64,000 nt of DNA, from contig CAWGQB010000027.1 of NCBI GenBank assembly GCA_963824565.1, positions 92,548 to 156,547 of the forward strand, written 5' to 3'. The stretch comes from an uncultured Pseudomonadota bacterium (GTDB lineage Bacteria > Desulfobacterota > Binatia > Binatales > Binataceae). A program made the position numbers and the translations under genes. Below are positions 5,436 to 60,338 of this stretch, in pieces. The notes beneath the pieces were generated by a model. That model searched no databases. It was not told the DNA's origin and saw only the letters and a program-made list of their open reading frames with translations. Within the stretch, counting starts at the first letter, position 1; every line of letters starts with the position of its first letter.

Positions 5436-5440
5436 GGAGC

Positions 5441-9300: not shown

Positions 9301-9589
9301 TGAAGGTAACGGTCAGAGTGAGATTGCCGGTGTTGGTCGACTGGCTCGACATGTAGAGCATGTTTTCCACGCCGTTGACCTGTTCTTCGATCGGCGTAGC
9401 GACCGTCTTGGCCACGGTTTCGGCATTGGCCCCGGGATAGGTCGCACTGACGGTCACGGTGGGCGGCACGATTTCCGGGTACTGCGACACCGGCAGCGTC
9501 ATGGCGGCGATCGAGCCCGCGATAATCGTGACGATCGAAATGACCATCGCGAAGACCGGACGATCGATAAAGAAATGCGCAATCTTCAC
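6360..9589 (-). pseudogene. RND (HAE1, AcrB/MexB-like) inner-membrane permease, two frame breaks (about 8905-8908 and 9227-9230)
   Basis: Three ORF-track pieces join into one RND protein. The pieces are (V)[18 protein letters not shown]...[11 protein letters not shown], then [19 protein letters not shown]...[11 protein letters not shown], then [14 protein letters not shown]...VVDDAIVVVENV... The GTG start at 9589 overlaps the adaptor stop (GTGA). Both breaks are at GGGG runs. Confidence 0.85.
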
Positions 9590-12017: not shown

Positions 12018-12039
12018 CCCCTTGTTTGCCTGATTTGTC

Positions 12040-13150: not shown

Positions 13151-13286
13151 AAATTGGAAATACCTGTTTACTATTATACAATGGGCCCGAAAATCGAGGG
13201 GAGGGCGGCGCCAAAGTCTGCGTCGAGCCCAACGGCCAACACCCTCATAGCCCAAACCTTGCGGGATAACTGATTTCGTCCTAAGG

Positions 13287-14129
13287 GTGAGCTCGTCCAA
13301 ACGCGTTATGGAAAGCCCGGATAAAGTCATGCCTAACGAATCTGTGACGGCAACCGCCGCCGACCGCGCATGGCACAAGCTCCTGGTTGAAGGGCACAAG
13401 CCGATCCTCCTCGCGCATCGGTTCTTCCGCTATATGCCTGGTCCGCCGCGCTGCAAGCTTTGTCATAACCCCTTTGGAGGAATTGGGGGGAAGCTCGTGG
13501 GATTGTTCGGTTTCAGCCCGTCGCGCAAGAATCCCAATCTTTGCGCCCGCTGTTGTGACGCCCTTCCCCCAGGTGGCGCGGAGGTCGATATCGCTGTGCT
13601 TTTCGCGGACATACGGGGTTCGACGGAGTTGGGCGAGAGGCTGGGGCCTCGGGCGTTTGCCGCGACGCTCAACCGGTTCTACCACGCGGCGACCGAAACG
13701 CTCATCCAGCATGACGCAATCGTGGACAAGCTGATCGGCGATGAGGTGATGGCACTCTTTATTCCGGGAATCTGCGGCCCCGAATATTACCGCCATGCCG
13801 CCGAGGCCGCCGTCGCGCTTCTGCGAGCGGTAGGATATGAAGATCCAGAGGGGCCTTGGATCCCCATTGGGGCGGCGGTGAATTCTGGCCGCACTTACGT
13901 CGGCAATGTAGGCGGTCATGGAGTAGTCGACTTCACTGCGCTAGGCGACACGGTCAACACGGCTGCGCGCCTCGCCTCGAGCGCAGGAGCTGGCGAGGCT
14001 TTGCTCAGTGAATCGGTTTACGGCGCCGTGGCCGTGCGATTTCCCAACCTGAAGCAACGCACCCTTGCATTGCGCGGCAAGGAGGCGCCATTCACCGTGC
14101 GCGTATGTCTCCCCACGCGCCGCGGCTAA
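13287..14129 (+). CDS. class III adenylate/guanylate cyclase with N-terminal Cys4 zinc-ribbon
   Basis: CKLC...CARCC, then VLFADIRGSTELGE (metal Asp), VDKLIGDEVMALF (Lys + metal Asp) and ALGDTVNTAARLAS (Asn/Arg). The catalytic set is canonical. GTG at 13287 or ATG at 13308. Confidence 0.85.
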   Translation: MSSSKRVMESPDKVMPNESVTATAADRAWHKLLVEGHKPILLAHRFFRYMPGPPRCKLCHNPFGGIGGKLVGLFGFSPSRKNPNLCARCCDALPPGGAEVDIAVLFADIRGSTELGERLGPRAFAATLNRFYHAATETLIQHDAIVDKLIGDEVMALFIPGICGPEYYRHAAEAAVALLRAVGYEDPEGPWIPIGAAVNSGRTYVGNVGGHGVVDFTALGDTVNTAARLASSAGAGEALLSESVYGAVAVRFPNLKQRTLALRGKEAPFTVRVCLPTRRG

Positions 14130-44180: not shown

Positions 44181-44201
44181 GTATCGTCGAGGTTGGAAAG
44201 A

Positions 44202-46043
44202 ATGCTCCGTCAAATAAATGATCTAAGAGTAAAGCTGCGCGGGGGGAAGAATGCTCCCGTCCACCCAGCCGTCGCCCTGGTGGCCAAGCTCGCACATCTT
44301 CCATTGCTGGAAAGCCTTGGCCCGCGGCTGTTGGAAGCAATCGCAACGGAATTCGACTGGTTTAGCCTGCCGGGAGGTCAGATTCTTTTTAACCATGGCG
44401 ACCGCGACAACTCTCTTTATGTAGTACTATCAGGACGGTTGGGGGCCTTTCTTCCCAATGACGAGGGTACGGAGATACTGATTCGGCAGATGGGTTCGGG
44501 CGAGACGGTGGGCGAGATGGCGTTGCTGTCGGGCGAACGGCGTTCCGCGACCGTACTTGCACTGCGCGACACGGAGCTTGCGCGCCTGTCAAAAAGCTCT
44601 TTTGAGAAGCTGATAGACCATCATCCCAAAGCGCTTCGCTTCATCACCGACCTGCTCGTTCAGCGCTTGCGAGAGCCCCCGCGGCTTGACGGTCCCAAGC
44701 TGGCTCCCCGGACCATCGCCATCTTTCCACTCGATCCCGAGCTGGCTTCCCCTGATTTCGCACGCTCTCTCGGCAAAGCGTTTGAAGAAATGGGGCTTAG
44801 GGCAGCCATTCTCGACCACAGTCGCGTGCAGCAGCCGATCGAGTGGTTCAACCAACTTGAAGAAGCCCATGACATAGTTTTGTATCAGGCCGATTTTGAA
44901 TCGTCGCCGTGGACCAGACTTTGCCTGCGCCAAGCTGATCGCCTGCTACTTTTGGCAGACGCCGCGCGGCCCCCATCGACCGCTTCATCCGCGATCGACA
45001 AAGTGATCAACAATCCGCGCAGGACTCCCGTGGAGCTGGTCATCCTCGAAAATGACCAATCCGCGCGTCCGCCTCAGACCACGTCTTTACTCACGGCGTT
45101 CACTGCAGTGATGCACCATCATGTCCGCCGGGGTGTGCCGCGCGACCTGCGACGCGTTGGCCGTCTGATCACCGGACGAGCCATCGGAATAGTGCTGTCG
45201 GGCGGTGGCGCGCGCGGCTTCGCACATATTGGCGTAATTCGCGCGCTCCGCGAAGCCGGGATCGAGTTGGATCTCTTCGGCGGATCCAGCATGGGCGCGA
45301 TCGTCGCCGCCGGCGCCGCGATGGATTGGGACGATCAGAGTCTGAGCGCGCACATGCGCGCCGCATTCTCCGACGCCAATCCCGTCAGTGACTATACCAT
45401 TCCAGTGATCGCGTTGGTGAGGGGACGCAAGGCCTCGCGCGCCTTCCGCGAACACTTTGGCGACCAACAAATAGAAGATACTCCCTATCCGTTCTTTTGT
45501 TTGTCGGTCAATCTTACAACTTCGCGCATCAAGGTGCATCGCACTGGTCCCTTATGGCTCGCCCTACGCGCGAGTACATCCATTCCTGGCGTGCTTCCCC
45601 CGGTGGTCGACGGAACGCAAATACTCATCGACGGGGGCATCATGAACAACCTGCCGATCGATGTAATGAGCGAAATGAAACGCGGGCCGATCATAGCCGT
45701 GGATGTTACACATGAATACGGCCTTGAGGCCACGATCGACAATATTGACCAACGCTCGATCTGGCAGCTTTTCGGCCACGCGCGCCACGGCACTCCCAAC
45801 ATACTTACGGTTTTGATGGCCGCCGGAACCGTGAGTAGCTCCGCTCAGGTTCGGACGCTACGCAACCGGGTCGACTTGCTAATCGAGCCGCAACTCGATG
45901 GGATCAGCATGCTTGATTGGAAGGCTTTCGATCGCACCATCGAAGCCGGGTACCGGCACACCATCGAAGCATTGGAAAAGCATGCGGGAACGCTGTTTCA
46001 GAAGCCGGGGCTGTCGCGGCCTACGGCGACTTTGAAGCGATAG
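44202..46043 (+). CDS. cyclic-nucleotide-binding domain + patatin-like phospholipase
   Basis: The CNB domain carries the phosphate-binding cassette GETVGEMALLSGERRSATVLA. The patatin part has GIVLSGGGARGFAHIGV (oxyanion hole), GGSSMGA (GxSxG) and DGGIMNNLP (catalytic Asp). ATG 44202 lies 22 nt after the RND stop. Confidence 0.9.
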   Translation: MLRQINDLRVKLRGGKNAPVHPAVALVAKLAHLPLLESLGPRLLEAIATEFDWFSLPGGQILFNHGDRDNSLYVVLSGRLGAFLPNDEGTEILIRQMGSGETVGEMALLSGERRSATVLALRDTELARLSKSSFEKLIDHHPKALRFITDLLVQRLREPPRLDGPKLAPRTIAIFPLDPELASPDFARSLGKAFEEMGLRAAILDHSRVQQPIEWFNQLEEAHDIVLYQADFESSPWTRLCLRQADRLLLLADAARPPSTASSAIDKVINNPRRTPVELVILENDQSARPPQTTSLLTAFTAVMHHHVRRGVPRDLRRVGRLITGRAIGIVLSGGGARGFAHIGVIRALREAGIELDLFGGSSMGAIVAAGAAMDWDDQSLSAHMRAAFSDANPVSDYTIPVIALVRGRKASRAFREHFGDQQIEDTPYPFFCLSVNLTTSRIKVHRTGPLWLALRASTSIPGVLPPVVDGTQILIDGGIMNNLPIDVMSEMKRGPIIAVDVTHEYGLEATIDNIDQRSIWQLFGHARHGTPNILTVLMAAGTVSSSAQVRTLRNRVDLLIEPQLDGISMLDWKAFDRTIEAGYRHTIEALEKHAGTLFQKPGLSRPTATLKR

Positions 46044-47342: not shown

Positions 47343-50300
47343 TTAGAGTCCGATCTGTTGTCCAACCAGGTGCGAATATAAACCGCCCATCTTAAGCAGA
47401 GACGCGTGAGTCCCCGCCTCCACCAGTGCGCCGCGGTCGATGACGAAAATTCGGTCCGCATTTTGCACCGTTGATAAGCGATGAGCAATGATAATGGTGC
47501 TGCGGCCGCGGCATGCTCCCTCCAGGTTCGCTTGGATCGCGCGTTCGGATTCAGTGTCAAGTGCGCTCGTCGCTTCGTCCAGAATCAGCAGGCTCGGATC
47601 GCGAAACAGCGCACGGGCGAGAGCAACTCGCTGACGCTGCCCGCCCGACAGGCTCATTCCACGCTCTCCCACCTTGGTGTCGTAACCCAGCGCCATGTCG
47701 TTCACAAAATCACTAACACCCGCGACTTGGGCCGCCGCGACTATCCGCTCGAACGGAGTGTCAGGATCGCCAAAGGCGATGTTCTCGCGGATTGTTCCGC
47801 TGAACAAAAAGACATCTTGCGGTACAACGCCGATCCTTCGGCGCAGATCGCGCCGTGAGAGCGTCCGGATGTCGTGCCCGTCAATAAATACTCTACCTTC
47901 CGATGGCAGGTACAGACCTACGATCAGTTTAGCCAACGTCGACTTTCCGGACCCGGACCGGCCCACGACGGCAATCTTTTCACCCGGGTTGATCTCGAAG
48001 GATACGTCGGCGAGCGTTGGCCGGTCCTGCCCCGGGGTATAACGAAACGAAACGCTTTCGAACCTGATGCTCCCTTCAACCCGAGGCAATGAGACAAGTG
48101 AACGGGATGGGCTTTCTTCCGGCGTCGCGTCAAAAATGTCGTTGAGCCGTTGAACCGCGTTTCTTACATCCTGCAGACTAGCCCATGAGTCGCTGAGCCG
48201 CAGCACCGGCTGAATCAGGTTCCCGGCAAGCGCGGTGAAAGCGATTAGCTCACCGACGGACATTTGGTTTTCCAGAACCTGGCGGGCTCCGTACCAAAGC
48301 ATCAGGACGGACGCCAAGGTTGAGAGGAAGCTCGCGCTGATCGAATACGCGGTCTCCAGGTGAGCTTCACGACGGCCAAGGATCGCGGAATCCACGAAAA
48401 GGTTCTCCCATTTCCACCGGACCGAGGTCTCGACAGCCATGGTTTTGATGGTCGCGATTCCGGTGATTGACTCGATTAGGTAGGACCATTGCTCCGCATT
48501 CTTTGCAAACCACTCCTTGCGGTTTTTCCGCACCGCCGGGGTAAAACCCAGCGTCAAGGAAACGAAAAACGGGATGAAAATCACAATTAGCAGTGTTAAT
48601 CGCAAATTGTAGTAGGCAAGGAAGCTCAGATAGCCCAGCGCCAGAAAGATGTCCAACACCAGTCCCGGAAGCGTTCCGACCATCGCCTCGCGAATCTTCT
48701 CATTCTCACCAACCCGGGAGACCACGTCGCCAACCCGGCGAAGGTCAAAAAAACGCATGGGCAGGCTCATCACATGGCGAAAGAAATCGGCTAGCAACCC
48801 AACATCGGCATGCGTAGCGATGTGGATCAAAAGCAAACGGCGAACGGCGGCGGTGGCGGTCTGCAGCACCACTACCAGGAGCATCCCGGCCAGCAAGGTA
48901 TCGAGCAGGTCCGCGGCATGCAGACCAACCACGCGATCAATTATTACCTGGGTGAACAGCGGCAACGCCAGGCCGAAAAGGTTAAGCAGAAGAGAAGCCA
49001 CCATCACTTCGGCCAGTATTGTCCGGAAGGGGATTAGCACCGCGCTGAATCGCGCATAGGAACCGCGAATTGGCCGATTGCTCCTGAGACGAATGGTGGG
49101 AATTAATTCGAGCGCGCGGCCGCTCCAACCTTTACGAAATTCGTCGGCTGGGAGCTTGCGGATGCCAATGCCCGGGTCACCGACAACTACATACTTTTTC
49201 TCGGCCTCGTAGAGAACGATATAATGGAAGCCTTCCCAGTGCACGATGGCGGGCGTGTTGATGTGCATGAGGGCGTCATAGGAGAGACGAAGACCTCGCG
49301 AGCGCAAACCGATCGCTTCCGCGGCCTGAGCCACGGACCACATGGATGCGCCGTCCTGGTCCGTGTTTGCCAGATCGCGCAATCGCGCGACACCTGCAGG
49401 TACACCGTAGTACGCCGTGATCATTGCCAGACACGCCGCGCCGCAATCGGTCTCGTCGTGTTGTGCCACGAACGGATAGGCCCTGAAGAATCGCCGCCAG
49501 TAAGGATTCGGGGAGGATAGGCGAACCTCGGCTTCATCCCCGGATGGGCGATCGTCCGAAGGAAACTGGATAGTATTCGGAGGAGACGGTTCCGGACGTG
49601 CGCCATGGAGGGTATAAGATGCCGCCACTTGTTCCAGACGGCGGCGGAACTCGGCAGATGCGTCGACAATTTTAGAGAAAGCCTCACGGGACAGGGAGTA
49701 CAGCTCAACGCCTGTCCGGGCGACAACGGTGGCAGTGCGTCGCCCATCGTTCAAGAGCGCCAGTTCGCCAAAGAATTCGCCGGGTCCGATAGAGTTCAGC
49801 AATCGCTCCGTGCCATCCTCGAGCTTGAAAACATCGAGCGTTCCCTGGCGCACAACATAGAATCGGTCTCCAGGATCGCCTTCGTGGAAAATGATCGTTC
49901 CGGCGGTGACCGATTGTTCTGCCAACTGCTCTAGTATTTCTCGCAGCAGCGGCGCCGGAACCGCGCCAAGCGCCGTGAAGCGCTTTAGAAAGTCGCGAAT
50001 CGTAAATTCCTTGAGATACCGTTCCAAAGCGATTCGCGCCTCGGGGTGATCAGCGACGAAGTCGTTGAAGTCCTTACGATCAAGCCGCAGCAGCACGAGA
50101 TCTTCCGCGGCTCGAACGGTCGAGCTGCGCGGCACGTCCAGGATCAGCGCAACTTCCCCGAAGTGATCGCCACGCTTTAATACGGCCAGCGAAACTTCCC
50201 GATTCGCGGAGTCCTTTCCAACTACGCGCGCCCGCCCCGAAGCCACCACAAAGAACGCATCTCCATCTTCTCCTTGTTCGAATACGGTATCGCCGGTCCG

Positions 50301-50408
50301 GAAAAAACACTCGATCATCCGGGCGGCCAGCCGCTCGTGCTCGCTTCGACCGAGCAGCGCAAACAGCCCTGCGGACTCCAGGATCAAGCACCGCTGATCA
50401 GTGTCCAT
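47343..50408 (-). CDS. ABC exporter with two N-terminal cNMP-binding domains + C39 peptidase + TMD + NBD
   Basis: CNB1 is FGEVALILDVPRSSTVRA and CNB2 is FGELALLNDGRRTATVVA. The C39 domain has the catalytic Cys in HDETDCGAACLAMI and His in VHWEGFHYIVLYE. NBD motifs are GRSGSGKSTL, LSGGQRQRVALARAL and LILDEATSALD. SD GGAGGA precedes ATG 50408. Confidence 0.9.
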   Translation of the reverse strand: MDTDQRCLILESAGLFALLGRSEHERLAARMIECFFRTGDTVFEQGEDGDAFFVVASGRARVVGKDSANREVSLAVLKRGDHFGEVALILDVPRSSTVRAAEDLVLLRLDRKDFNDFVADHPEARIALERYLKEFTIRDFLKRFTALGAVPAPLLREILEQLAEQSVTAGTIIFHEGDPGDRFYVVRQGTLDVFKLEDGTERLLNSIGPGEFFGELALLNDGRRTATVVARTGVELYSLSREAFSKIVDASAEFRRRLEQVAASYTLHGARPEPSPPNTIQFPSDDRPSGDEAEVRLSSPNPYWRRFFRAYPFVAQHDETDCGAACLAMITAYYGVPAGVARLRDLANTDQDGASMWSVAQAAEAIGLRSRGLRLSYDALMHINTPAIVHWEGFHYIVLYEAEKKYVVVGDPGIGIRKLPADEFRKGWSGRALELIPTIRLRSNRPIRGSYARFSAVLIPFRTILAEVMVASLLLNLFGLALPLFTQVIIDRVVGLHAADLLDTLLAGMLLVVVLQTATAAVRRLLLIHIATHADVGLLADFFRHVMSLPMRFFDLRRVGDVVSRVGENEKIREAMVGTLPGLVLDIFLALGYLSFLAYYNLRLTLLIVIFIPFFVSLTLGFTPAVRKNRKEWFAKNAEQWSYLIESITGIATIKTMAVETSVRWKWENLFVDSAILGRREAHLETAYSISASFLSTLASVLMLWYGARQVLENQMSVGELIAFTALAGNLIQPVLRLSDSWASLQDVRNAVQRLNDIFDATPEESPSRSLVSLPRVEGSIRFESVSFRYTPGQDRPTLADVSFEINPGEKIAVVGRSGSGKSTLAKLIVGLYLPSEGRVFIDGHDIRTLSRRDLRRRIGVVPQDVFLFSGTIRENIAFGDPDTPFERIVAAAQVAGVSDFVNDMALGYDTKVGERGMSLSGGQRQRVALARALFRDPSLLILDEATSALDTESERAIQANLEGACRGRSTIIIAHRLSTVQNADRIFVIDRGALVEAGTHASLLKMGGLYSHLVGQQIGL

Positions 50409-50529: not shown

Positions 50530-51264
50530 TTGAGCAGCGAAACAGACAGTTCGGCGCGGGTGGAATGGTTAAAGGCGGGGGGCACTGTGGTCACCGGCGC
50601 GGCAGTCCTGGTTGAGCTGAAGCTCGGGGCGAGCGCCCAACTGTTGGAGGATCTGACGCTTCGACGAGTTGCCAAAGCGATGGCCGAGCGGCGCAGCATT
50701 GTGCACTCCGAAGAGGAGTTAGACCAGGCGCTGGCCGCCTTTTACATGGAGCGTAATCTGCTTGACCACCAGCAAATTTCCGATTGGCGTCGATCGCTGC
50801 GCCTGGAGGAAGCAACGCTGCGCGAATACGTGGGTGAGACGGTACTGTTCAGGCGCTTGCGAGAGAGTCTGATCTCCGATCAGTCGGTGGAGAACCGTTT
50901 CAGGATGAACCCGCACGAGTATGCACGGGCAGAGGTTGCTATCTTCACTTTTTCGAGCGAAGGGGCAGGCAAGGAATTCGTTTTGGCGGTCCGTGAGAAG
51001 GAGATCGAGCCGATCCATGGCGCTCGGCAGTGGATGATTCGGCGGGAGACGCCGGACGAGGCGGCGGCGCTGATCTTCTCTGCGCAACCGGGAGACATCG
51101 TGGGACCCGCCGAGACGAATTACCAATGTTACGAGGTGTACCGGCTACTGCGCCGTGAAAGCGGAGTCCTGGATGCACGATTGAAGAAGCAGCTTCGCAA
51201 CGAACTGTTCGATGAACTCCTCAAGGCGGAACTCTCGCGCGACCCGATCAAGTTCCTCTTATAG
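50530..51264 (+). CDS. SurA-N/PpiC (parvulin)-like accessory protein; start uncertain
   Basis: 244-aa ORF. The layout resembles the PPIase-like proteins I recall next to HlyD/C39-ABC peptide exporters (helical N-terminal part ...EELDQALAAFYMERNL...SDWRRSLRLEEATLREYV..., then a degenerate parvulin-like part ...QPGDIVGPAETNYQCYEVYRL..). Confidence 0.45.
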   Translation: MSSETDSSARVEWLKAGGTVVTGAAVLVELKLGASAQLLEDLTLRRVAKAMAERRSIVHSEEELDQALAAFYMERNLLDHQQISDWRRSLRLEEATLREYVGETVLFRRLRESLISDQSVENRFRMNPHEYARAEVAIFTFSSEGAGKEFVLAVREKEIEPIHGARQWMIRRETPDEAAALIFSAQPGDIVGPAETNYQCYEVYRLLRRESGVLDARLKKQLRNELFDELLKAELSRDPIKFLL

Positions 51265-51318: not shown

Positions 51319-52485
51319 TCATTCCGAGAATCGGAAATTGCGCCGCAGGCGCAGGAAAGGGTCGAGCATCACACTGATAACAGTGCGCCGATCAACCTCT
51401 ATTTCAGCCGTTAGGGCAAGACCCGTGCGCACGGCTTCGGTACCGTGAGAGTCGTCCAGCGTCAGGCGGTCGGGCATGATCCACGCGCGATACGCGCCGG
51501 ATTGATCAGCGTCCGGGTCTATTGAAACCAATGTGCCGGGCAGTAGACCGAACCGCTGATACGGATACGCGTCCAACTTCATCCGCGTTCGCAGCCGGGG
51601 CTTCACCCGCCGCATGGATTCGTTGGGGATCCAGACTTCCGCCAGTAACGGCTCGTCGCTGGGATCGATTGTCGCCGCCACATCGTTTGCGGCGAGATAC
51701 CGTCCGGGGCGCAGCGAGCTGACGTAACTTACCGTTCCAGCGATAGGAGCTACCAAGACTGTCCTTTGCTGAACTTGAATATCCCGGCCAAGCTCGATTT
51801 CCAACGCCTCGATCTTTTGGGATGTTCCAATCGCTAGCCCTCGATCCTTTCGGCCTTCGGCGTCTGAATGGTTCAGATCCGATTGAAGCTGAGCGACGTG
51901 CGTTTGAGCCTCCGCAACGGCCGCTTCTCTCTCCTGTAAGTCGAAAAGCGATACTGCTTCAGCCTGGTAGGCTTCGTGCATCGCACGAGCTTGTTGAGCC
52001 GTTAGTTCGAGCAGCTTCTGAGCGCCCACGAGCTCTTGCTTGATATGACCCGAAGCGCTCGCCAGAATATCCGCGCTATCCTTATAAGCGTCGCCCTCGG
52101 CCTTCGTCTCCGCCAGTTCGTGACGAACGCGCGCAACCTCGGCTTCCTCACGAAAGGAATCGATCTCGAGGATCGGCTCGCCTGCGCGCACCTTTGCGCC
52201 TACCTGGACCAGCACCGCGGAAACAACTCCCCCAGCTGGAATAGAAAGACGCTCGGGTTCGGCGCGAGGCACCAACCGACCCTTGGCAGTTACTACGACA
52301 TTTACTCTGGCAATCGACGCCCAGGTGAGACCGGCAAACACGGTAAGGCTAATGAGATAAATCATTCCGCGGGAGAGCAGGATGCTCAATTGCGGTAGGA
52401 CCCGATCTGTTGGCGCGATCTCCACGGTGTCATTCAAACTGTAGTTCGTTGTGGCAGCTGCAATCTCGAAGGCGGCATAGCAAAC
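51319..52485 (-). CDS. HlyD-family (type I secretion / bacteriocin export) membrane fusion protein
   Basis: An N-terminal TM segment (MIYLISLTVFAGLTWASIA), a long coiled coil, and C-terminal lipoyl/beta-barrel blocks. The start is ATG 52485 or 52533. Confidence 0.85.
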   Translation of the reverse strand, partial: VCYAAFEIAAATTNYSLNDTVEIAPTDRVLPQLSILLSRGMIYLISLTVFAGLTWASIARVNVVVTAKGRLVPRAEPERLSIPAGGVVSAVLVQVGAKVRAGEPILEIDSFREEAEVARVRHELAETKAEGDAYKDSADILASASGHIKQELVGAQKLLELTAQQARAMHEAYQAEAVSLFDLQEREAAVAEAQTHVAQLQSDLNHSDAEGRKDRGLAIGTSQKIEALEIELGRDIQVQQRTVLVAPIAGTVSYVSSLRPGRYLAANDVAATIDPSDEPLLAEVWIPNESMRRVKPRLRTRMKLDAYPYQRFGLLPGTLVSIDPDADQSGAYRAWIMPDRLTLDDSHGTEAVRTGLALTAEIEVDRRTVISVMLDPFLRLRRNFRFSE

Positions 52486-52608
52486 CATAGGCTCCCGGAC
52501 GCTGCAGATGCAAACAGCAGACAGCTCACACAAACAGCGAGCTAGATTATCTTCTCATAAAGAAAAGTTTTACAAGCACAATCTTTTTACGACGATAAGT
52601 TTTATTTG

Positions 52609-52638
52609 GTTGCACGATTCTGTCGCGTATGCATAAAT
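52609..52638 (+). promoter_or_regulatory. candidate promoter of the peptide gene (TTGCAC ... extended -10 TGCATAAAT)
   Basis: TTGCAC at 52609-14 and TGCATAAAT at 52630-38. The surrounding stretch is AT-rich. A paralogous version lies at 53105-53133. Confidence 0.4.
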
Positions 52639-52678
52639 TAAGAGAGTCTCGGTCAGTAGAACTAAAAAGGAGGCAGCA

Positions 52679-52840
52679 ATGGACAAGCGTAATGAATCGG
52701 AGAGCGAAGAGCTCAGCAAGAAGGAGATGAAGAACACCAAGGGTGGAGCAGCAATCGCCGTAGCCAAGGAGCCGAAGCTCAAGATAGACGCACCTGCCGA
52801 ATCCTTGGTTGAAGCACCCAAACGGGTGCTCGATCGCTAA
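52679..52840 (+). CDS. 53-aa double-glycine (GG) leader peptide precursor, not in the ORF track (<60 aa)
   Basis: Own translation: MDKRNESESEELSKKEMKNTKGG|AAIAVAKEPKLKIDAPAESLVEAPKRVLDR*. A strong SD (AAAAAGGAGG) lies 6 nt upstream. The leader fits the C39 consensus (L-12, E-8, M-7, T-4, G-2, G-1). It sits next to the HlyD/C39-ABC genes. Confidence 0.75.
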   Translation: MDKRNESESEELSKKEMKNTKGGAAIAVAKEPKLKIDAPAESLVEAPKRVLDR

Positions 52841-52901
52841 AGCCTAACCAGCTCTGCGCCCGTGGCGCGCGCCACCGGCAACTTAAGCGATCAACACTTG
52901 T

Positions 52902-52932
52902 GCAGCTCTGGGTCACTCGGGCTCAGAGCTGC
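52902..52932 (+). terminator. stem-loop after the peptide gene (9-bp perfect stem GCAGCTCTG / CAGAGCTGC)
   Basis: Read directly from the sequence. It is preceded by the GC palindrome GTGGCGCGCGCCAC (52862-75). The U-tract is weak (ctttc). Confidence 0.4.
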
Positions 52933-53087
52933 GCAAGGCTTTCGCGTCATCTTTAGGCACCGGGCCCTGTGACTGTGCCCAGCGGGAAGTGTGCGAGGAA
53001 CGCCCCCAAATAAAGCGCAATTAACTGAGCGTGGTCTCGGGTTTTGTGGCCGCGGCTAGCTGGTCTAGAAACATAATCTGTTTCCAA

Positions 53088-53227
53088 CGCTAAGTTTGAT
53101 TTTATTGCAGAGTGTTATCTGGTATGCGATAAGGAAACGAATTTCGATCGACGCAACTGCCAAAGAGAAAGCCATGGGCAAGCGCAATGAACCGGAGCAC
53201 TCCAGGCGTTACCCGAAGGTCGACTGA
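53088..53227 (+). pseudogene. decayed paralog of the GG-peptide gene (promoter + first 8 codons conserved, then a 17-aa ORF)
   Basis: cgctaagtttgattttattgcagagtgttatctggtatgcgataag aligns with 52594-52640. ATG 53174 encodes MGKRNEPEHSRRYPKVD*, versus MDKRNESESEELSKK... in the intact copy. No GG motif remains in any frame. Confidence 0.45.
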
Positions 53228-53407: not shown

Positions 53408-56400
53408 ATGGCACAATCAGGGACTGTAACACTGCTATTTACCGACCTGGTCAATTCGACCGATCAGTTGCAACAGGCGGGCGACGAAGCCGAGCGGTGG
53501 TTTCGAGTTCATCACAAGCTGATGACCGATGCGGTCACGGCCGGCGGCGGAGAGGAGCTGCAATGGCTGGGCGACGGGATGCTGGCGGCGTTCTCGTCGA
53601 TCGCCGACGCGGTGCGTTGCGCCATCAATGTGCAGCAGACCGCGCGCCGCCCGATGGCCGGCGCGCGTTTCGAGATTCGCATCGGCATTCATTTGGGCGA
53701 GGTCCTGCGCCGCGACGGCGGCTACTTCGGTATGCCGGTGGTCACCGCGCGCCGGCTGTGCGACCGTGCCGAGGCCGGGCAAATCCTGTGCAGCAAACTG
53801 ATCGCGGAGTTGCTGGCGGCGCGCCAGACTTTCAGCTTCCGCGATCTGGGCGAATTTAGCTTGAAAGGCCTCGCGGCGCCGGTGGGGATTTGCGAGGTAG
53901 TTTATCCGGCTAACGACCCCGCCGCGATGCTTAACCGGACCCCGTTCGTGGGCCGTGGCGGGCAACTGCAGCGGCTGTCAGCCAAGCTCGAAGAGGCCTG
54001 CAACGGCCGCGGCTCGATTGCGATGGTGCGCGGTGAACCGGGGATCGGCAAGACCCGGACGCTCGAAGAGTTCGCCGACCAGACCCGCCAACGCGGCGCG
54101 GTGGCGATTCGCGGCGCTTGTTACGACGGCGAATGGCAGGCGCCCTACGGCCCGTTCGCGGAAGCAATCATGGAGTATGCTCGCGATGCCAACCGCGCCG
54201 AGCTTGGCACCCTGCTGGGCAAGCGGGCGCCGATTCTCGCGCGCATCGCGCCGGCGCTGCACGAGTTGCTCGGCGACATCCCCGAACCGGTGCCGCTGGA
54301 CAAGGAAGAAGAACGCTTCCGCCTGTTCGACGCGGTCGCGCAGTTTTTGATCAGCGCCGCGCAGTATGCGCCGCTAGTGCTGATCCTCGACGACCTGCAC
54401 TGGGCGGACCGCGGCACGGTAGCGATGTTAAGCCATGTGGCGCATTTCGTTTCCGCCAATCCGATCGTGCTCATTGGCGCCTATCGCGACGCTGAAGTCG
54501 ACCGCAAGCATCATCTGGCGGGGGCTCTGGCCGGCATCAGCCGGCTGCACAATTTCGACAGCCTGGCGCTCAAAGGGCTCGAAGGTGAGGAGGTCGCGGA
54601 CTTGCTCGGGTTAATCGGCGACGGGCAGCCACCTGACGCCCTGGTCAAGGCGCTGGGGGGCGCCACCGAAGGCAACCCGCTGTTTCTGCGCGAGGTGTTG
54701 CTGCACTTGGTAGAAGAGGGAAAAATCCTGCGCGAAGGCCACGGCTGGATTTCCAAGTTCAGCGTCGACGAACTCGGTATCCCCGAAGGCGTGCGCCAGG
54801 TAGTCAGCCGGCGACTGCTGAGGCTGTCCGATGACGCCAACCGTCTGCTCGGGGTCGCTTCGGCGTTCAACGGCGCATTCTCGTTTGAGGTGGCAGCCTC
54901 GGCGGCGGGACTCCACGAGAACACCGCGCTCAGCGCGATTGACGAAGCCCTGGAGGCTCAGCTTTTACAGCCGGGGCCAAGCCCGGAGAGTTTCGACTTC
55001 ACCCACGCGATGATCCGGCACACACTCTATAATGATCTCCATCCGGCCCGCCGGGTGCGGCTGCATCGCAAGATCGCCGAAGAAATGGAGCGCGCCTGGG
55101 GCGAGCGCGCGGCGCATCACGCCGCGGAAGTGGCGTTTCAGTTCTGGCGCGGCGCCGCGGCGTCCTCGGGCACCGAGCGCGGCGTCGATTACGCACTGGC
55201 CGCGGCCGATAATTCCGAAGCCGCCTACGCGCATGACGAAGTGGCGGCGTTCCTGCGCATCGCCTTGGAGTTGCTCCCGGCCAACGACTCCAGACGCCCG
55301 CGTCTGCTCGCGCGTTTGGGCACCGCACTGATCTGGACGCTTGATGCCGACGACGGGGTCAAGGTCGCGCTCGAAGCGGGATCCATGATTGCCGCCACCG
55401 AGGGAGCCGATCCTGCGGCCGACTTCTTTGAAGCCACCGCGCGCGGAATGCTGCGCGCTGGCCTGATGCGTCACGCATGGGATTTGGCCCGGGAAGGCCT
55501 GCGCAACATCGGCAAGCGCCGTGACATTGTGTGGGCGAGCCTCGACGAGATCGATACGTATCGCGCTGATGCTGAAGATCCCGACAGCCCGGCCATAACT
55601 GTCGATTCCCAACGACTGCGCCAACGGCGCGCGGTACTCAAGCAAATGTCATCCGAGCGGGCCAAAGCCCGGAGAATTGACGAATATCCCTACGACTCAA
55701 GAGAGGAAATCATTCGCGACCCCAACTGCGACAATCTGGCGATGGTTTTTCTCGCCGGCGATTGCCGGCGCAGTCTGCCGTTGTGGCAGCAGCGCTCCGC
55801 CGACGCTGAGCGCTGCGGCCGGATTGCGTTGGCGATGGAGTCCTGGGCATACGTCGCCCGATGTCACAATGCGCTCGGCGATTTCATTGCCGCGCGGGCC
55901 GCGTATGATCGGTCGATCGCATTTGCCGCGCGCTTCAATCGCCCTTCGTTTCAACTCCTTAATCTCATGTCCGTTAGATATGATTTCCTCATAGCCCTTG
56001 ACCACGGCTGGGATGAAACCATCAGCGTTCCCGGAGCAGCGGAGCTGTTCAAAAATCCGCTCCCGGAATTGAAATGGGCCTATGCCGCCGCTTGCGCGAC
56101 CACGGCTCACACTCTGGCGTTACAGAACCGCGCCGATCAGGCGTTACAGGTGCTTAGCATCGTACCCGATGCGCTGCGTCGTGGAGCGCCCTTTGGACTG
56201 GTGTACAGCTTGACCGCCTGTGATGCCGCGTCGGTGCTGTGGCTACTCAATCGCACTGATCATATGGAGGTTATCGAGAGTAGCATCCGGGAGAAGGTTC
56301 TGGCCCCCGATTTCCGTTTTCCGATGCGCGACGGCCGGTTATCGATGGCGCGTCTGTCCGCGCTTGCGGGCCGCTACGATGAGGCGGCGGACTGGTTCGC

Positions 56401-56614
56401 CAAGGCGCGCGAGATCCTCGATGAGCAGGGTTGGCGGCCGCTGCGTGCAATCTGTGACTACGATGAAGCGGTAATGTATATACGGTGCGGCGCGGCAACG
56501 GGCATCTCAAACGCGCAGCCTCTGCTCGACGCGGCTGCGCGCCAATTCCAGTCCCTCGGCATGCCCGGCTGGATCAAGCGCGCCGAGCAAACCTCTGCCG
56601 CCATCCGCAATTAG
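53408..56614 (+). CDS. class III cyclase domain + AAA/STAND P-loop ATPase + TPR-like C-terminal region (1068 aa), paralog 1
   Basis: Cyclase blocks are VTLLFTDLVNST, ELQWLGDGMLAAF, FEIRIGIHLGEV and GGYFGMPVVTARRL. Walker A is GEPGIGKTR and Walker B is LVLILDDLHWAD. The long helical-repeat C-terminus has no LuxR-type HTH recognisable. Confidence 0.9.
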   Translation: MAQSGTVTLLFTDLVNSTDQLQQAGDEAERWFRVHHKLMTDAVTAGGGEELQWLGDGMLAAFSSIADAVRCAINVQQTARRPMAGARFEIRIGIHLGEVLRRDGGYFGMPVVTARRLCDRAEAGQILCSKLIAELLAARQTFSFRDLGEFSLKGLAAPVGICEVVYPANDPAAMLNRTPFVGRGGQLQRLSAKLEEACNGRGSIAMVRGEPGIGKTRTLEEFADQTRQRGAVAIRGACYDGEWQAPYGPFAEAIMEYARDANRAELGTLLGKRAPILARIAPALHELLGDIPEPVPLDKEEERFRLFDAVAQFLISAAQYAPLVLILDDLHWADRGTVAMLSHVAHFVSANPIVLIGAYRDAEVDRKHHLAGALAGISRLHNFDSLALKGLEGEEVADLLGLIGDGQPPDALVKALGGATEGNPLFLREVLLHLVEEGKILREGHGWISKFSVDELGIPEGVRQVVSRRLLRLSDDANRLLGVASAFNGAFSFEVAASAAGLHENTALSAIDEALEAQLLQPGPSPESFDFTHAMIRHTLYNDLHPARRVRLHRKIAEEMERAWGERAAHHAAEVAFQFWRGAAASSGTERGVDYALAAADNSEAAYAHDEVAAFLRIALELLPANDSRRPRLLARLGTALIWTLDADDGVKVALEAGSMIAATEGADPAADFFEATARGMLRAGLMRHAWDLAREGLRNIGKRRDIVWASLDEIDTYRADAEDPDSPAITVDSQRLRQRRAVLKQMSSERAKARRIDEYPYDSREEIIRDPNCDNLAMVFLAGDCRRSLPLWQQRSADAERCGRIALAMESWAYVARCHNALGDFIAARAAYDRSIAFAARFNRPSFQLLNLMSVRYDFLIALDHGWDETISVPGAAELFKNPLPELKWAYAAACATTAHTLALQNRADQALQVLSIVPDALRRGAPFGLVYSLTACDAASVLWLLNRTDHMEVIESSIREKVLAPDFRFPMRDGRLSMARLSALAGRYDEAADWFAKAREILDEQGWRPLRAICDYDEAVMYIRCGAATGISNAQPLLDAAARQFQSLGMPGWIKRAEQTSAAIRN

Positions 56615-56802
56615 CCAAGTCGGACTGCTCCCTTATGCGCGGTATGGCCTTTAGCGAACTGCATGAACGGGGGTACACGCCGCACCCTCGAGTTTTCTAA
56701 GAGACCCTAATGCCCTTTGCGCCGGCCAAACTGAGCTATCCAGAAACATTCAGCGTTCCCTCGGGATGCAAACGAGACCTACACAAACGATCTCTAGTTA
56801 GA

Positions 56803-56979
56803 AACAAGTTGACATAGACTTTTAACGCTTGTAGGTTCAAAATCATGCAGCGGCAGCACTTCGAGACCCCATATGGCAGCTTAAGAACCACACCGGCGTC
56901 TCCGCATTCCGTTCCGATTGGGATGGATCTCGGCGAGTAGCAGTTCGACAGAAATACCACCGTCTCCGAAGCGGAGGTA
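56803..56979 (+). promoter_or_regulatory. conserved promoter (TTGACA-17-TAGGTT) plus conserved leader hairpin; paralog of 38871..39040
   Basis: AAACAAGTTGACATAGACT...GCTTGTAGGTT has its -35 at 56809-14 and -10 at 56832-37. It carries ATATGGCAGC (56871-80) and AGAAATACCACCGTCTCCGAAGCGGAGG. The hairpin is TACCACCG (56955-62) paired with CGGAGGTA (56972-79), with one mismatch. Confidence 0.5.
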
Positions 56980-57137
56980 GAGCTATCTTTTGAAGGTTTC
57001 GATGCGACAATTGCGCAGCCTTGGACACCCCGGGTTGCGGGACCGGCGGGCAAAATCGCCGGCCGGCGCGCAAACGCGCGGCGTCGGAGGCTCGGAGGGC
57101 GCCGTCCTGATCGAGGTGGCGCGGCGGTAGGTCTGCG

Positions 57138-60100
57138 ATGGCGGAATCCGGAACCGTTACGCTGCTGCTCACCGATCTGGTCAATTCGAGCCTACTGTTG
57201 GAGCGCGCCGGCGACGAAGCCGGCCAGCGGTTGTTCCGTGCCCACCACAAGCTGATGACCGATGCGATCACCAGCAACGGCGGAGAGGAATTGCAATGGC
57301 TGGGAGACGGCGTGCTGGCGGCGTTTTCATCAACCGCCGACGCGGTGCGTTGCGCGATCATTATCCAGCAAACCGCACGGCGGCCCGTGGAGGGAGCGCG
57401 GTTCGAGATCCGCATCGGGGTCCATATCGGCGAGGCGTTGCGGCGCGAGGACGGCTACTTCGGCACACCTTTGGTGATGGTGCGCCGGCTGTGCGAGCGC
57501 GCCGCGGCCGGACAGATCCTTTGCAGCAGGCTGATCGCGCAGATATTGGCCTCGCGCCAGTCGTTCACGTTCCGCGCGCTTGATAACGTCGAACTCAAAG
57601 GTTTCGCGGCGCCAATCGCCATCAGCGAAGTCGTCTACCAGCGCAACGATCCGGCAGCACTGCTCAATCGCACTCCGTTCGTGGGCCGCTCAGAGCAACT
57701 CAAACGTCTGTCGGTTAAGCTTGAAGAGGCCTGCAACGGCCACGGGGCGGTTGCGATGCTTCAGGGCGAGCCCGGCATCGGCAAGACCCGCACCCTGGCC
57801 GAGTTTGCCGACATGGCCCGCCAACGCGGAGCGCTGGTGCTGCGCGGCGCTTGCTACGACGGTGAATGGCAACGGCCCTATGGTCCGTTCGCGGAAGCGA
57901 TCGTCGAATACACGCGGCATGCCCAACCCGCGCAACTCGCCGCTGCATTGGGCAAGAGCGCGTCAATTATCGCACGCATCGCGCCGGCGCTCCGCGAACG
58001 GCTGGGCGACATTCCGGAACCCACAGCGTTGGACAAGGACGAGGAGCGCTTCCGGCTGTTGGACGCGGTTTCACAGTTTCTCATCGCCATCGCCCAGCAC
58101 ACGCCCCTGGTATTGGTGCTCGACGATCTGCATTGGGCGGACCGCGGGACGACGGGACTGCTCGGCCACGTGGCGCATAGTGTTCCCGCGAATCCGATGC
58201 TGTTAATCGGCGCCTACCGCGACGCCGAGGTTGACCGGATGCACCCGCTCTCCAGAGCCGTCGTCACGATTCGAAGGCTGCCGAACTTTGAAATCATTTC
58301 GTTGAAGGGTCTCGGAGGCGAAGAGGTAGCTGAGTTGCTCGAGATCGTCGCCGACCACGACGCGCCCCAGGCTCTGGTCCAGACGCTCAGCGCGGAGACC
58401 GAAGGCAACCCGCTATTTATCCGCGAGGTGCTCTTGCACCTGCTGGAAGAGGGAAAGATTCTGCGTGACGGCCAGGGCTGGATATCGAAATTCGACGTAT
58501 CGGAGCTCGGTATCCCAGAGGGAGTACGCAGTGTAATCGGCAGGCGCCTGGAGAAGCTGTCCGCTGAAGCCAATCGCCTGTTGACGGTCGGGGCGTGCTT
58601 TAAAGGTTCGTTCTCTTTCGAAGTGGCTGCCGCTGTTGCCGAACTGGACGAAGACGTTGCACTCAACGCGGTCGACGAGGCACTCGATGTGCAACTGCTG
58701 CGTCCTGGCGCCAATGCTGAGAGCTTCGATTTCAACCATGCGCTCATCCGCCACACGCTTTACTCAGAGCTCAACCCCGCTCGCCGGGTACGGCTGCATC
58801 GCCGCATCGCGGAAGCGATGGAACGTACGTGGGGCGAGAAGGCGTCGGAACACGCTGCCGAAGTGGCCTACCAGTTCTGGCGCGGCGCCACCGCTTCCGG
58901 CACCGAACGCGGTGCGGACTACGCGATCGCGGCCGCGGACTATGCCGAAGCTGCCTATGCGCACGACGAGGTAGTCGCCTTTTTACGCATCGCCTTGGAA
59001 CTCCTGGCGCGAAACGACTCGCGCCGAACCCGGCTGCTCGCCCGCCTGGGGCTGGCCCTCACGTGGACACTTAACGAGGAAGAGGCGGTAAGGGTCGCCC
59101 ACGAAGCGGGTGACTTGATCGCACCTGCCGAGAGCCCTGCCGCAGCGGCAGACTACCTCAGGATCGCGGCGCGCGCGATGTATTCCGCGGGACTGTTGCG
59201 TGGCGCCTGGGAACTGGCCAAGGATGGGCTCCGTCATGCGGGTGACCGCCACGACGTCACCTGGGCCAGCCTTAACGAGATTGATTTGATGCGCCAGGGC
59301 GCCGAGGATCCCGCAAATCCGGGTATCCGTTCCGACACCCCGAACGAACGCGAACATCGTGCCATATTGAGGCAGCTGCCGCCCGAACAATTGCGCGCCG
59401 CCGGTCTGGATCGGCCATTTGATTCCAGGAATGAGATCCTGCAATCCAATGACCCCTCGCCAATTGCATTGTTGTTCCTTGCGGGCGAATACCGGCGCAG
59501 TCTGCCCATTTGGCAACGAGAGGCGGCCGAAGCAGAGCGCGCAGGCCGAATCATGTGGGCGATGCACGCGTGGGCCAGCGTGGCACGCTGCCATATCGCG
59601 CTTGGTGACCTGACTGTCGCGCAGGCAGCATGCGACCGTGCCGCGGTGTTGTCCGGACGTTCGGTCGGGTCATCGCCCTGGCTGCTGAACCTGCTCTCGG
59701 CGAGACACGACCGGCGCGTCATGCTCGATGAGGGATGGGAAGAAGTATTCAGCGATCCCTTAGTCCAAACCCTGATGCAGGAGCAGCGCGCGGAGAACAA
59801 ATGGGCAGCGGCGCCAGTCCATGCTGCATCGGCTTACCTGTTTAGCCGAATCAACCAGCCGGAGATGGCTGTGCAGCGGCTCGAATCGCTGACCGCCGCG
59901 CTCGAATACGGAGCCGGATGGGCCAATGTTTACAGCGGCATGGCCTGTGACGCAGCTGCGACGCTATGGTTTCTCAATCGTACGGACTCGATCGGCGTCA
60001 TTGAACGAAACCTCCGTGAAAAAGTCATTGCTCCCGACTTCCGCTATCCGATGCGCGACGGACGTCTCTCTCTCGCGCGTCTGTGCGCTCTCCAGGGGCG

Positions 60101-60338
60101 TTACGATGAAGCCTCGCAATGGTTCGCCGACGCGCGCGAAGTCCTCCACGAACAGGGGGCTCGCCCATTGCGCGCTATCACTGATTTCGATCAGGCCATC
60201 ATGTATCACCGTCGCGCCGGCCAGGGAGATATCGAACGTGCGGCTCCATTTTTGGAAGCCGCTTGCGAACAGTTCCGTCAGCTCGGCATGACGGGCTGGA
60301 TACGCCGCGCTGAGGCGGCTGCCAAAGCCGGTACGTGA
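57138..60338 (+). CDS. class III cyclase domain + AAA/STAND ATPase + TPR-like region (1066 aa), paralog 2
   Basis: Collinear with paralog 1 (roughly two-thirds identical by eye): VTLLLTDLVNSS, ELQWLGDGVLAAF, GYFGTPLVMVRRL, GEPGIGKTR and LVLVLDDLHWAD. Confidence 0.9.
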   Translation: MAESGTVTLLLTDLVNSSLLLERAGDEAGQRLFRAHHKLMTDAITSNGGEELQWLGDGVLAAFSSTADAVRCAIIIQQTARRPVEGARFEIRIGVHIGEALRREDGYFGTPLVMVRRLCERAAAGQILCSRLIAQILASRQSFTFRALDNVELKGFAAPIAISEVVYQRNDPAALLNRTPFVGRSEQLKRLSVKLEEACNGHGAVAMLQGEPGIGKTRTLAEFADMARQRGALVLRGACYDGEWQRPYGPFAEAIVEYTRHAQPAQLAAALGKSASIIARIAPALRERLGDIPEPTALDKDEERFRLLDAVSQFLIAIAQHTPLVLVLDDLHWADRGTTGLLGHVAHSVPANPMLLIGAYRDAEVDRMHPLSRAVVTIRRLPNFEIISLKGLGGEEVAELLEIVADHDAPQALVQTLSAETEGNPLFIREVLLHLLEEGKILRDGQGWISKFDVSELGIPEGVRSVIGRRLEKLSAEANRLLTVGACFKGSFSFEVAAAVAELDEDVALNAVDEALDVQLLRPGANAESFDFNHALIRHTLYSELNPARRVRLHRRIAEAMERTWGEKASEHAAEVAYQFWRGATASGTERGADYAIAAADYAEAAYAHDEVVAFLRIALELLARNDSRRTRLLARLGLALTWTLNEEEAVRVAHEAGDLIAPAESPAAAADYLRIAARAMYSAGLLRGAWELAKDGLRHAGDRHDVTWASLNEIDLMRQGAEDPANPGIRSDTPNEREHRAILRQLPPEQLRAAGLDRPFDSRNEILQSNDPSPIALLFLAGEYRRSLPIWQREAAEAERAGRIMWAMHAWASVARCHIALGDLTVAQAACDRAAVLSGRSVGSSPWLLNLLSARHDRRVMLDEGWEEVFSDPLVQTLMQEQRAENKWAAAPVHAASAYLFSRINQPEMAVQRLESLTAALEYGAGWANVYSGMACDAAATLWFLNRTDSIGVIERNLREKVIAPDFRYPMRDGRLSLARLCALQGRYDEASQWFADAREVLHEQGARPLRAITDFDQAIMYHRRAGQGDIERAAPFLEAACEQFRQLGMTGWIRRAEAAAKAGT

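Follow-up and report, generated by a model that had tools for sequence, protein, structure and literature searches.

A small gene for a predicted double-glycine-leader peptide beside a cyclic-nucleotide-binding peptidase exporter in an uncultured Binataceae bacterium

Does a short open reading frame (ORF), lying between an hlyD gene and a cyclase gene in the genome of an uncultured member of the Binataceae, encode an exported peptide, and, if it does, what kind of peptide is it? The ORF occupies positions 52679-52840 of the + strand in a 64-kb stretch of contig CAWGQB010000027.1; this whole stretch is called the window below. An earlier note, made from the sequence alone, had described its product as an unannotated 53-residue peptide with a double-glycine (GG) leader and an atypical, highly charged, cysteine-free core. 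On the comparative evidence given below, the small gene is real and translated. We also consider it probable that the product is a precursor which is recognized through its leader by the adjacent peptidase-containing ABC exporter (PCAT), cleaved after Gly23 and exported via HlyD and an outer-membrane channel.

The ORF starts with ATG and is translated as MDKRNESESEELSKKEMKNTKGGAAIAVAKEPKLKIDAPAESLVEAPKRVLDR, followed by a stop codon. The 53-amino-acid (aa) precursor divides at the leader/core boundary into MDKRNESESEELSKKEMKNTKGG (leader) and AAIAVAKEPKLKIDAPAESLVEAPKRVLDR (core). The parts of the gene are as follows.

52679-52840, + strand: precursor peptide gene, 53 aa (translation, homologs, conserved synteny, selection pattern)
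52679-52747, + strand: leader, codons 1-23, ending in GG; part of the precursor gene
52748-52837, + strand: 30-aa core; part of the precursor gene
52838-52840, + strand: stop codon of the precursor gene
52667-52673, + strand: Shine-Dalgarno sequence AAGGAGG, 5 nt before the ATG (from the sequence; AGGAGG is kept in alignments of the relatives)

The setting of the ORF was as the earlier note had described it. Besides the reading frame and the Shine-Dalgarno sequence, we observed the AT-rich surroundings (GC of 0.46-0.49 at the peptide gene vs. about 0.58 in the flanks), the divergent HlyD gene at 51319-52533 on the - strand, and an antisense ORF of 83 aa at 52570-52821 on the - strand. The antisense ORF was rejected as a true gene, since it shrinks to 48 aa in the nearest relative and the substitutions are coding-like on the sense strand. 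The word "unannotated" was only half right: the gene product has no name, but the identical 53-aa protein is already present in the public protein collection (NCBI/ENA record).

About 25 relatives of the peptide are known, from metagenomes and from metagenome-assembled genomes (MAGs) of Candidatus Binataceae, some of them labelled "uncultured delta proteobacterium"; bog and forest soils were the source of homologs. Protein searches returned 10 homologs (P0001-P0010) with 42-98% identity, and a profile run exhaustively against 1.84 billion representative proteins matched 17 of them at E <= 0.001, 14 of which were new (P0034-P0047). Judged by these sequences, the peptide family is small and narrow. 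The leader pattern (E)(E/V)L(S/T)xxEMKxTKGG is found in every member, and two tandem peptide paralogs are frequent in the relatives.

The position of the gene is conserved along with its leader. In four related loci (L002, L009, L012 and L013) the peptide lies in the same place, between hlyD and the cyclase gene. A tblastn comparison of the proteins of this neighborhood with the related loci showed the gene order cyclase, peptide(s), HlyD, SurA-like protein, PCAT to be conserved in L009, L012 and L013, where the PCAT is 78-83% identical to that of the window (71% in another locus, L011). The shorter locus L002 has the cyclase, the peptides, HlyD and the SurA-like protein, together with the beginning of the PCAT. 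L008 also has its peptide divergent from hlyD and keeps the order peptide, HlyD, SurA-like protein, PCAT, but its cyclase lies beyond the PCAT. Thus, the search for homologous small ORFs beside genes of transporters with cyclic-nucleotide-binding (CNB), C39 and ABC domains, which the earlier note had suggested, found them at a conserved place in multiple Binataceae loci.

Some irregularities were seen among these loci. In L008, the PCAT is in two pieces (3420-6484), one with the CNB and the other with the C39-ABC portion, and the second peptide (9446-9619) continues into a Cys-rich out-of-frame tail; both are probably long-read assembly indel errors and not biology. On a more distant Binataceae-like contig (L007, 2954-9224), the place of the cyclase after the two GG peptides is taken by genes for a beta-helix/NosD-like protein and for Tad/TadE pili.

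The earlier note had also allowed for the case that only the DNA, and not the ORF, is conserved. We observed instead that the leader peptide is kept through many synonymous changes. For the last 21 leader codons, compared in 36 pairs, the proportion of synonymous differences (pS) was 0.18-0.88, while that of non-synonymous differences (pN) was 0.02-0.28, with synonymous changes in great excess in nearly all 36 pairs; for example, the window and L007 leaders had pS of 0.74 and pN of 0.11. The ratio pN/pS was 0.10-0.29 in the leader and 0.35-0.95 in the core, the counts being small. The leader is under strong purifying selection, and the core evolves fast. The occurrence of homologous ORFs at the same place in many independent loci, together with this codon pattern of a translated gene, places the peptide ORF beyond chance.

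The 23-aa leader ends in KGG and, as read from the sequence, has L at position -12, E at -8, M at -7, T at -4, and G at -2 and -1. The GG pair is invariant in all aligned homologs, and so are L-12, E-8 and M-7. At position -4, all Binataceae members seen have Thr, and the analogs from Acidobacteriota have Val. The features expected of a GG leader are therefore present, i.e. an N-terminal leader of about 15-30 residues with a GG end, an acidic residue at -8 and a cognate C39 transporter nearby. The fit to the C39 leader consensus claimed in the earlier note held for L-12, E-8, M-7 and GG, but not for T-4, which departs from the hydrophobic residue of the consensus.

The composition given earlier for the core was confirmed in all its parts (6 K/R, 5 D/E, 3 Pro and no Cys). 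The core has no Gly and a single Ser or Thr; its grand average of hydropathy (GRAVY) is -0.07 and its net charge +1. Across the family, the cores are composed of 23% Ala, 10% Val and 9% each of Glu, Leu, Lys and Pro, with net charges from -1 to +3 and GRAVY about 0, and most members end in K or R. Cysteine is absent from the intact cores, appearing only in P0034 (the frameshifted second copy of L008) and at the C-terminus of P0044. Among 11 aligned members, Glu41 is the only invariant core residue besides Ala24 at the cleavage site.

The genes that would process and export such a precursor lie next to it.

47343-50408, - strand: PCAT, 1021 aa, with two cyclic-nucleotide (cNMP)-binding domains, Peptidase_C39, ABC_membrane and ABC_tran (Pfam)
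51319-52533, - strand: HlyD-family periplasmic adaptor (Pfam HlyD_3, 65.8 bits; TIGR01843, 132.6 bits, sub-threshold for that subfamily; synteny)
50530-51264, + strand: SurA/PpiC-like protein, 244-aa ORF (sub-threshold Pfam and NCBIfam matches, AlphaFold2 model, Foldseek, synteny)

In the PCAT, two Pfam cNMP_binding matches (172.6 bits in total) stand N-terminal to the C39 and ABC modules, and both CNB domains have the canonical phosphate-binding cassette (FGEVAL...PRSSTV and FGELAL...RRTATV, read from the translation). An alignment of the C39 domain (about residues 300-445 of the PCAT) to that of PCAT1 showed four residues to be kept, namely Gln, Cys (TDCGAACL), His (FHYIVLY) and Asp (GDPG); the residues of PCAT1 aligned to them are what we take to be its catalytic set. 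The C39 domains of ComA and LahT likewise gave significant matches to the window domain, and the exporter had strong but sub-threshold matches to the bacteriocin-exporter models TIGR01193 and TIGR03796. The adjacent exporter thus looks catalytically competent from its sequence. The earlier note's pairing of the precursor with a cognate exporter is borne out in that a CNB-CNB-C39-ABC protein with intact peptidase residues and an HlyD adjoin the precursor gene. The true start of HlyD is probably the ATG near 52488.

The public product of the SurA/PpiC-like gene (P0012) has 225 aa and matches the 3' 92% of the ORF, which places the start near 50587. The Pfam scores are below the cut-offs (Rotamase_2 at 23.8 bits vs. 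27, and SurA_N at 16.7 bits), and the match to TIGR04500 reaches 53.2 bits against a cut-off of 180 and covers profile positions 116-327 alone. The AlphaFold model has a mean predicted local distance difference test score (pLDDT) of 64, with a confident helical part and a parvulin region below 50. All top 12 Foldseek matches in the PDB are SurA or SurA-like chaperones, with probability about 1 but weak E-values (E >= 0.05). A SurA-like gene is found next to the PCAT in other phyla as well, and its equivalents in L021 and L023 have clear Rotamase matches. By eye, with no predictor run, no signal-peptide-like N-terminus was seen, and the protein is probably a cytoplasmic chaperone for the precursor.

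These genes suggest the following route. The 53-aa precursor would be synthesized on ribosomes. The C39 cysteine peptidase of the neighboring CNB-CNB-C39-ABC transporter would recognize the 23-residue GG leader of this precursor and remove it after Gly23. The SurA-like protein could act here as a holdase or a presentation factor. The 30-residue hydrophilic, Cys-free core would then leave the cell, most likely without enzymatic modification, by way of the transporter, the HlyD adaptor and an outer-membrane channel of the TolC type whose gene lies elsewhere.

The DNA on either side of the peptide gene contains further conserved elements.

52608-52641, + strand: candidate promoter block, TTGCAC (52610-52615), a spacer of 16-18 nt, and CATAAATT (alignments)
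52549-52604: two 24-nt direct repeats (52549-52572 and 52581-52604) with 75% identity and 32 nt apart, within the control region of the divergent hlyD and peptide genes
52858-52879, + strand: first GC-rich hairpin after the stop codon (fold)
52897-52937, + strand: second hairpin, 18-bp stem, no U-tract (folds, covariation)
53174-53227, + strand: decayed second peptide copy, MGKRNEPEHSRRYPKVD followed by a stop codon (alignment to relatives; Shine-Dalgarno sequence and start region kept)

The promoter block is invariant in close relatives, and TTGCAA...TAAT is retained in distant ones. A consensus scan found nothing convincing on the + strand and did not call this block, so the assignment rests on conservation. 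The direct repeats are conserved in L002 and L008, and this may mark them as a regulator binding site or operator.

Folding recovered both of the palindromes that the earlier note had seen after the ORF. The hairpin region has a minimum free energy of -59.8 kcal/mol (z = -5.2), and 0 of 200 shuffled sequences folded equally well. In every Binataceae locus examined (L002, L007, L008, L009, L012, L013), the 18-bp hairpin is found again behind the peptide genes, with the core motif GCAGCTCTGGG...CCCAGAGCTGC. In an alignment of seven sequences, 94% of the cells were paired and 5 pairs were changed on both sides, compared to 22-47% paired in the slid-register controls. The region has no Rfam match at E <= 1. 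A dispersed repeat like the repetitive extragenic palindromic (REP) elements was rejected, as the motif was found nowhere else in the window, and a canonical terminator was rejected for want of a U-tract in the scan. The conserved hairpin is probably a partial terminator or an element stabilizing the 3' end of the mRNA. Hairpins that yield an abundant precursor transcript are common after bacteriocin and RiPP (peptide made by the ribosome and modified after translation) structural genes; here, the hairpin could similarly make a short transcript of the precursor abundant while limiting read-through to the cyclase gene.

At the position of the decayed copy, L002, L003 and L004 have an intact 61-aa paralog (P0005). 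A sequencing frameshift was rejected as the cause of the decay; the many substitutions and indels point to a decayed paralog.

Several genes related to cyclic nucleotides surround the peptide and its exporter.

53408-56614, + strand: class III cyclase - AAA_16 (STAND ATPase) - TPR protein, downstream of and co-directional with the peptide (Pfam)
57138-60338, + strand: second, paralogous cyclase-AAA_16-TPR protein (Pfam)
44193-46043, + strand: cNMP-binding patatin-like phospholipase next to the exporter, less firmly part of the neighborhood (Pfam)

In L002, L009, L012 and L013, the first cyclase gene adjoins that of the peptide; L008 and L011 have it elsewhere in the locus. The phospholipase adjoins the PCAT in L009 and is about 7 kb from it in L013. 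According to these comparisons of gene order and sequence, the PCAT, HlyD, SurA/PpiC-like and Rv0386-like cyclase-STAND-TPR genes form a module that is conserved across Binataceae. The cyclase domains keep both metal-binding Asp residues; the closest solved cyclase to the protein at 53408-56614 is Ma1120. 

The window as a whole is rich in cyclic-nucleotide genes. In addition to the cyclase-STAND-TPR pair (53408-60338) and the patatin/NTE-like lipase (44193-46043), there is a third, stand-alone class III cyclase at 13287-14129, and the two CNB domains of the PCAT add to this unusual density.

What the mature peptide does is a separate question from its export. Export could be gated by a cyclic or related nucleotide bound to the tandem CNB domains, and the neighboring cyclase-STAND-TPR proteins may supply that nucleotide. 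Outside the cell, the peptide might act as a lineage-specific signal, and this is the role that we tentatively prefer. It is favored because the core is hydrophilic and diverges fast while the leader is fixed, the paralogs come in arrays, the gene is linked to signaling genes, and no immunity gene is present. The pheromone-like role put forward in the earlier note therefore stays plausible, given its conserved linkage to cyclic-nucleotide genes; the support is circumstantial, and no receptor was identified. One may go further and imagine a self-contained, cNMP-gated "secrete-and-sense" circuit in Binataceae. In such a circuit, cyclases would set the level of cNMP, cNMP would open the PCAT and activate the CNB-patatin lipase, and the diversifying cores would be lineage-specific signals; the CNB-PCAT/HlyD/SurA-like module would then serve the regulated export of unmodified hydrophilic peptides in general, with its cargo mostly undetected in cyanobacteria. 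This larger scheme is speculative, and we think it rather unlikely to hold as a whole.

Several observations weigh against the export, gating and signaling described above. The case for translation, cleavage and secretion is made by sequence comparison. Thr at -4 is atypical, the consensus residue being hydrophobic, although the departure is mild; the leader also narrowly misses the 15-position model TIGR01847 (bacteriocin_sig), with 14.1 bits against a cut-off of 15.7. In the rearranged locus L011, it is downstream of the PCAT that the two peptides lie. As for the supply of the nucleotide, the cyclase at 53408-56614, compared to Ma1120, has Gln at the substrate-specifying Lys and Pro at the transition-state Asn, and by eye its paralog at 57138-60338 has the same motifs (LQWLGDG; FGTPLVMVRRL), which makes their activity uncertain; Gln at the Lys position recalls Rv0386 of M. 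tuberculosis. The linkage to cyclases is confined to Binataceae and is absent from the loci of Acidobacteriota, Planctomycetota and Elusimicrobia. No receptor gene is evident. The cyclase-STAND-TPR proteins begin directly with the cyclase domain, with no signal sequence seen, and are probably cytoplasmic, so they would be unable to sense an exported peptide without its re-import. As to the gating ligand, the CNB domain of HetC from Nostoc PCC 7120 bound ppGpp, and not cAMP, in vitro (PMC10986499).

Other roles of the peptide have to be weighed against a signal. An antimicrobial of the class II microcin or bacteriocin type, exported by the PCAT and HlyD to kill competitors, would use the same genes: a GG leader with a C39-ABC transporter and HlyD is the classical microcin export architecture, a conserved leader with a fast core is typical of bacteriocins, and both the tandem paralogs and the strong sub-threshold scores of the exporter against the two bacteriocin-exporter models would agree with it. 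The cores, however, are not hydrophobic, Gly-rich or strongly cationic; they are Pro-rich and Cys-free, with the net charge and hydropathy given above. Moreover, no conserved extra ORF that could confer immunity was found between hlyD, the peptide and the cyclase in the loci compared, where the spacer between peptide and cyclase has only hairpins and a decayed paralog, and the nearest characterized transporter of HetC-like organization exports non-antibiotic proteins (PMC4997328). By its core composition and the lack of an immunity gene in these loci, the peptide does not fit the class II bacteriocins or microcins, and we regard an antimicrobial function as unlikely. A peptide of the extracellular matrix or cell surface, by analogy with EbfG1-4, is in our view equally doubtful. 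EbfG1-4, the cargo of a transporter (PteB) called HetC-like by the authors, have such a role (PMC4997328); the low-complexity cores rich in Ala, Pro, Val, Glu and Lys, in which composition is kept more than sequence, and the variable number of peptide copies would suit it. On the other hand, these peptides are short (30-57 aa), and a structural role alone would leave the linkage to cyclic-nucleotide signaling genes unexplained.

The possibility that the peptide is a RiPP precursor, for instance of a graspetide with Lys-Glu/Asp cross-links, requires a maturase elsewhere and a PpiC/SurA-like partner as in rosaritide (MirC). It is suggested by a core rich in Lys, Glu and Asp, by a weak resemblance of the leader to the radical-SAM RiPP leaders of TIGR04149, and by the weak match of the PpiC-like protein to TIGR04500, which is the family of MirC, a protein of the PCAT-containing rosaritide cluster (PMC13097080). 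However, when 38 ORFs across the window were scanned against Pfam, none of the 38 proved to be an ATP-grasp, radical-SAM, LanM/LanC, YcaO or other recognized RiPP enzyme, and no RiPP maturase was found in the conserved module or in any syntenic locus. The TIGR04500 match covers the SurA-like C-terminal part only, and not the N-domain of MirC, Ser and Thr are scarce in the core, and its one invariant residue beyond the cleavage site is Glu41. We thus consider a modified peptide improbable. Narrower assignments were rejected: the downstream genes of about 1,067 aa, which by size might be LanM, have cyclase, AAA_16 and TPR domains in Pfam; a lanthipeptide does not agree with a core lacking Cys and a window in which no lanthipeptide synthetase was found; and the TIGR04149 match is confined to the leader and reaches 18.5 bits where the cut-off is 25, with no radical-SAM protein found among the scanned ORFs. 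The peptide itself has no Pfam match, and its NCBIfam matches are sub-threshold and limited to the leader. The earlier opinion that the core resembles neither lanthipeptides nor hydrophobic class II bacteriocins is thereby upheld. Finally, the ORF could have arisen by chance or be a regulatory leader ORF whose attenuator hairpins control the downstream cyclase gene, as strong hairpins follow it and it lies upstream of and co-directional with that gene. This we find very improbable, given the retention of the leader amino acids under synonymous change, a conserved motif that is exactly a C39 cleavage motif, the detachment of the L011 peptides from the cyclase to a place after the PCAT, and the analogous GG peptides at CNB-PCAT loci without any cyclase.

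Two observations concern other parts of the window. Two AcrB-type RND transporter genes are each present as two overlapping ORFs (40529-43264/43068-44180 and 6360-8939/8873-9820); these are either real frameshifts (pseudogenes) or long-read MAG assembly errors. At 12251-12931, a fragment of a DDE transposase (DDE_Tnp_1_4) and, on the other strand, a truncated ORF for a zinc-dependent dehydrogenase overlap, probably as an insertion scar.

Long-type CNB PCATs are widespread, in cyanobacteria (PMC3140520) and, as observed here, in Binatota, Acidobacteriota, Planctomycetota and Elusimicrobia, and their cargo is mostly unknown. With an adjacent cargo gene, a clean leader and no apparent need of a maturase, the locus is a convenient minimal system for studying whether peptide export is gated by a nucleotide second messenger, and what part the SurA-like partner has in it. 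It also gives a first handle on the secreted peptides of Binataceae, a little-studied lineage for which we know of no cultured representative. Should the peptide turn out to be an ordinary bacteriocin, a nameless small gene would still be correctly annotated and a new GG-peptide family added.

The same combination of genes was observed well outside Binataceae. When related CNB-PCAT loci were scanned with a leader hidden Markov model, small ORFs with GG leaders and hydrophilic, Cys-poor cores were found in arrays of 1-4; these loci belong to Pyrinomonadaceae (L017-L019), Elusimicrobia (L020), Blastocatellia (L021, four copies) and Planctomycetota (L023). The complete four-part module of PCAT, HlyD, SurA-like protein and GG peptides is present in Blastocatellia and Planctomycetota. 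In L021 (region 11375-13566), the order is PCAT, four tandem peptides, a 400-aa ORF without Pfam match, HlyD, a protein with SurA_N and Rotamase domains, and HlyD; in L023, the Rotamase protein is divergent from the PCAT.

Among described systems, the Gram-positive GG-leader peptides (ComC/ComA, BlpC, LagD, the substrates of PCAT1) share L-12, E-8, a hydrophobic residue at -7 and GG with the window peptide, and the C39 residues align with PCAT1. Unlike them, the window system would use a three-component route in a diderm cell, its transporter has CNB domains, its leader has Thr at -4, its core is hydrophilic, Pro-rich and Cys-free, and neither a histidine kinase/response regulator pair nor an immunity gene is adjacent. 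The rosaritide (mir) cluster consists of MirA, the ATP-grasp enzyme MirB, MirC (TIGR04500, required together with MirB) and the PCAT MirD (PMC13097080). It resembles our locus in that a small precursor, a PCAT and a PpiC/SurA-like protein are encoded together, and differs from it by the ATP-grasp ligase, the N-domain of MirC and a conserved donor/acceptor pattern, none of which is found among the scanned window ORFs, in the PpiC-like protein or in the core, respectively.

The cyanobacterial transporters are closer. HetC of Nostoc, a proposed exporter of a signaling peptide, needs all three of its peptidase, ATPase and cNMP domains in vivo (PMC10986499). HetC is likewise a cNMP-domain-C39-ABC exporter; unlike the window system, it has no adjacent HlyD gene and no known substrate. 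The window exporter has a canonical phosphate-binding cassette in both of its CNB domains and an evident cargo. In Synechococcus elongatus PCC 7942, PteB secretes the GG-motif proteins EbfG1-4 and so enables biofilm formation; this secretion depends on the catalytic Cys, and the function of the EbfG proteins is non-antibiotic (PMC4997328). The domain organization of PteB was described as HetC-like, with no mention of a CNB domain (PMC4997328). EbfG1-4 are, as here, small GG-motif cargo of a C39 transporter. Compared by published description only, they are larger, and the detected fragments suggest that they are Tyr/Pro/Ser-rich (PMC4997328).

The nearest counterparts are the cyanobacterial group I/II clusters, which have a long-type CAP_ED-C39-ABC transporter, HlyD and SurA (Wang, Fewer and Sivonen 2011, PMC3140520). 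The long-type transporters were found in nearly every cyanobacterium analyzed; group I precursors amounted to just 0.35 per cluster (PMC3140520). Our locus differs from group I in its Binataceae host, two CNB domains, adjacent unambiguous cargo and the cyclase-STAND-TPR linkage; a pairing of GG peptides with such cyclase genes was not described in the publications that we found on these exporter systems. As far as tested, the window peptide falls outside the NHLP, N11P, HetP and DUF37 classes. What it shares with group I is an N-terminal cNMP-domain C39-ABC transporter, an HlyD, a probable SurA/rotamase-type protein and small GG precursors nearby. The "novel cargo class" of the earlier note was thus overstated, as the arrangement of PCAT, HlyD, SurA-like protein and GG peptide had already been described from bioinformatic work in cyanobacteria (PMC3140520), one such system exporting EbfG (PMC4997328). 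The peptide family is new, in that its sequences match no curated family above threshold, and the kind of system to which it belongs, GG-leader cargo of a CNB-PCAT/HlyD/SurA-like exporter, is already known.

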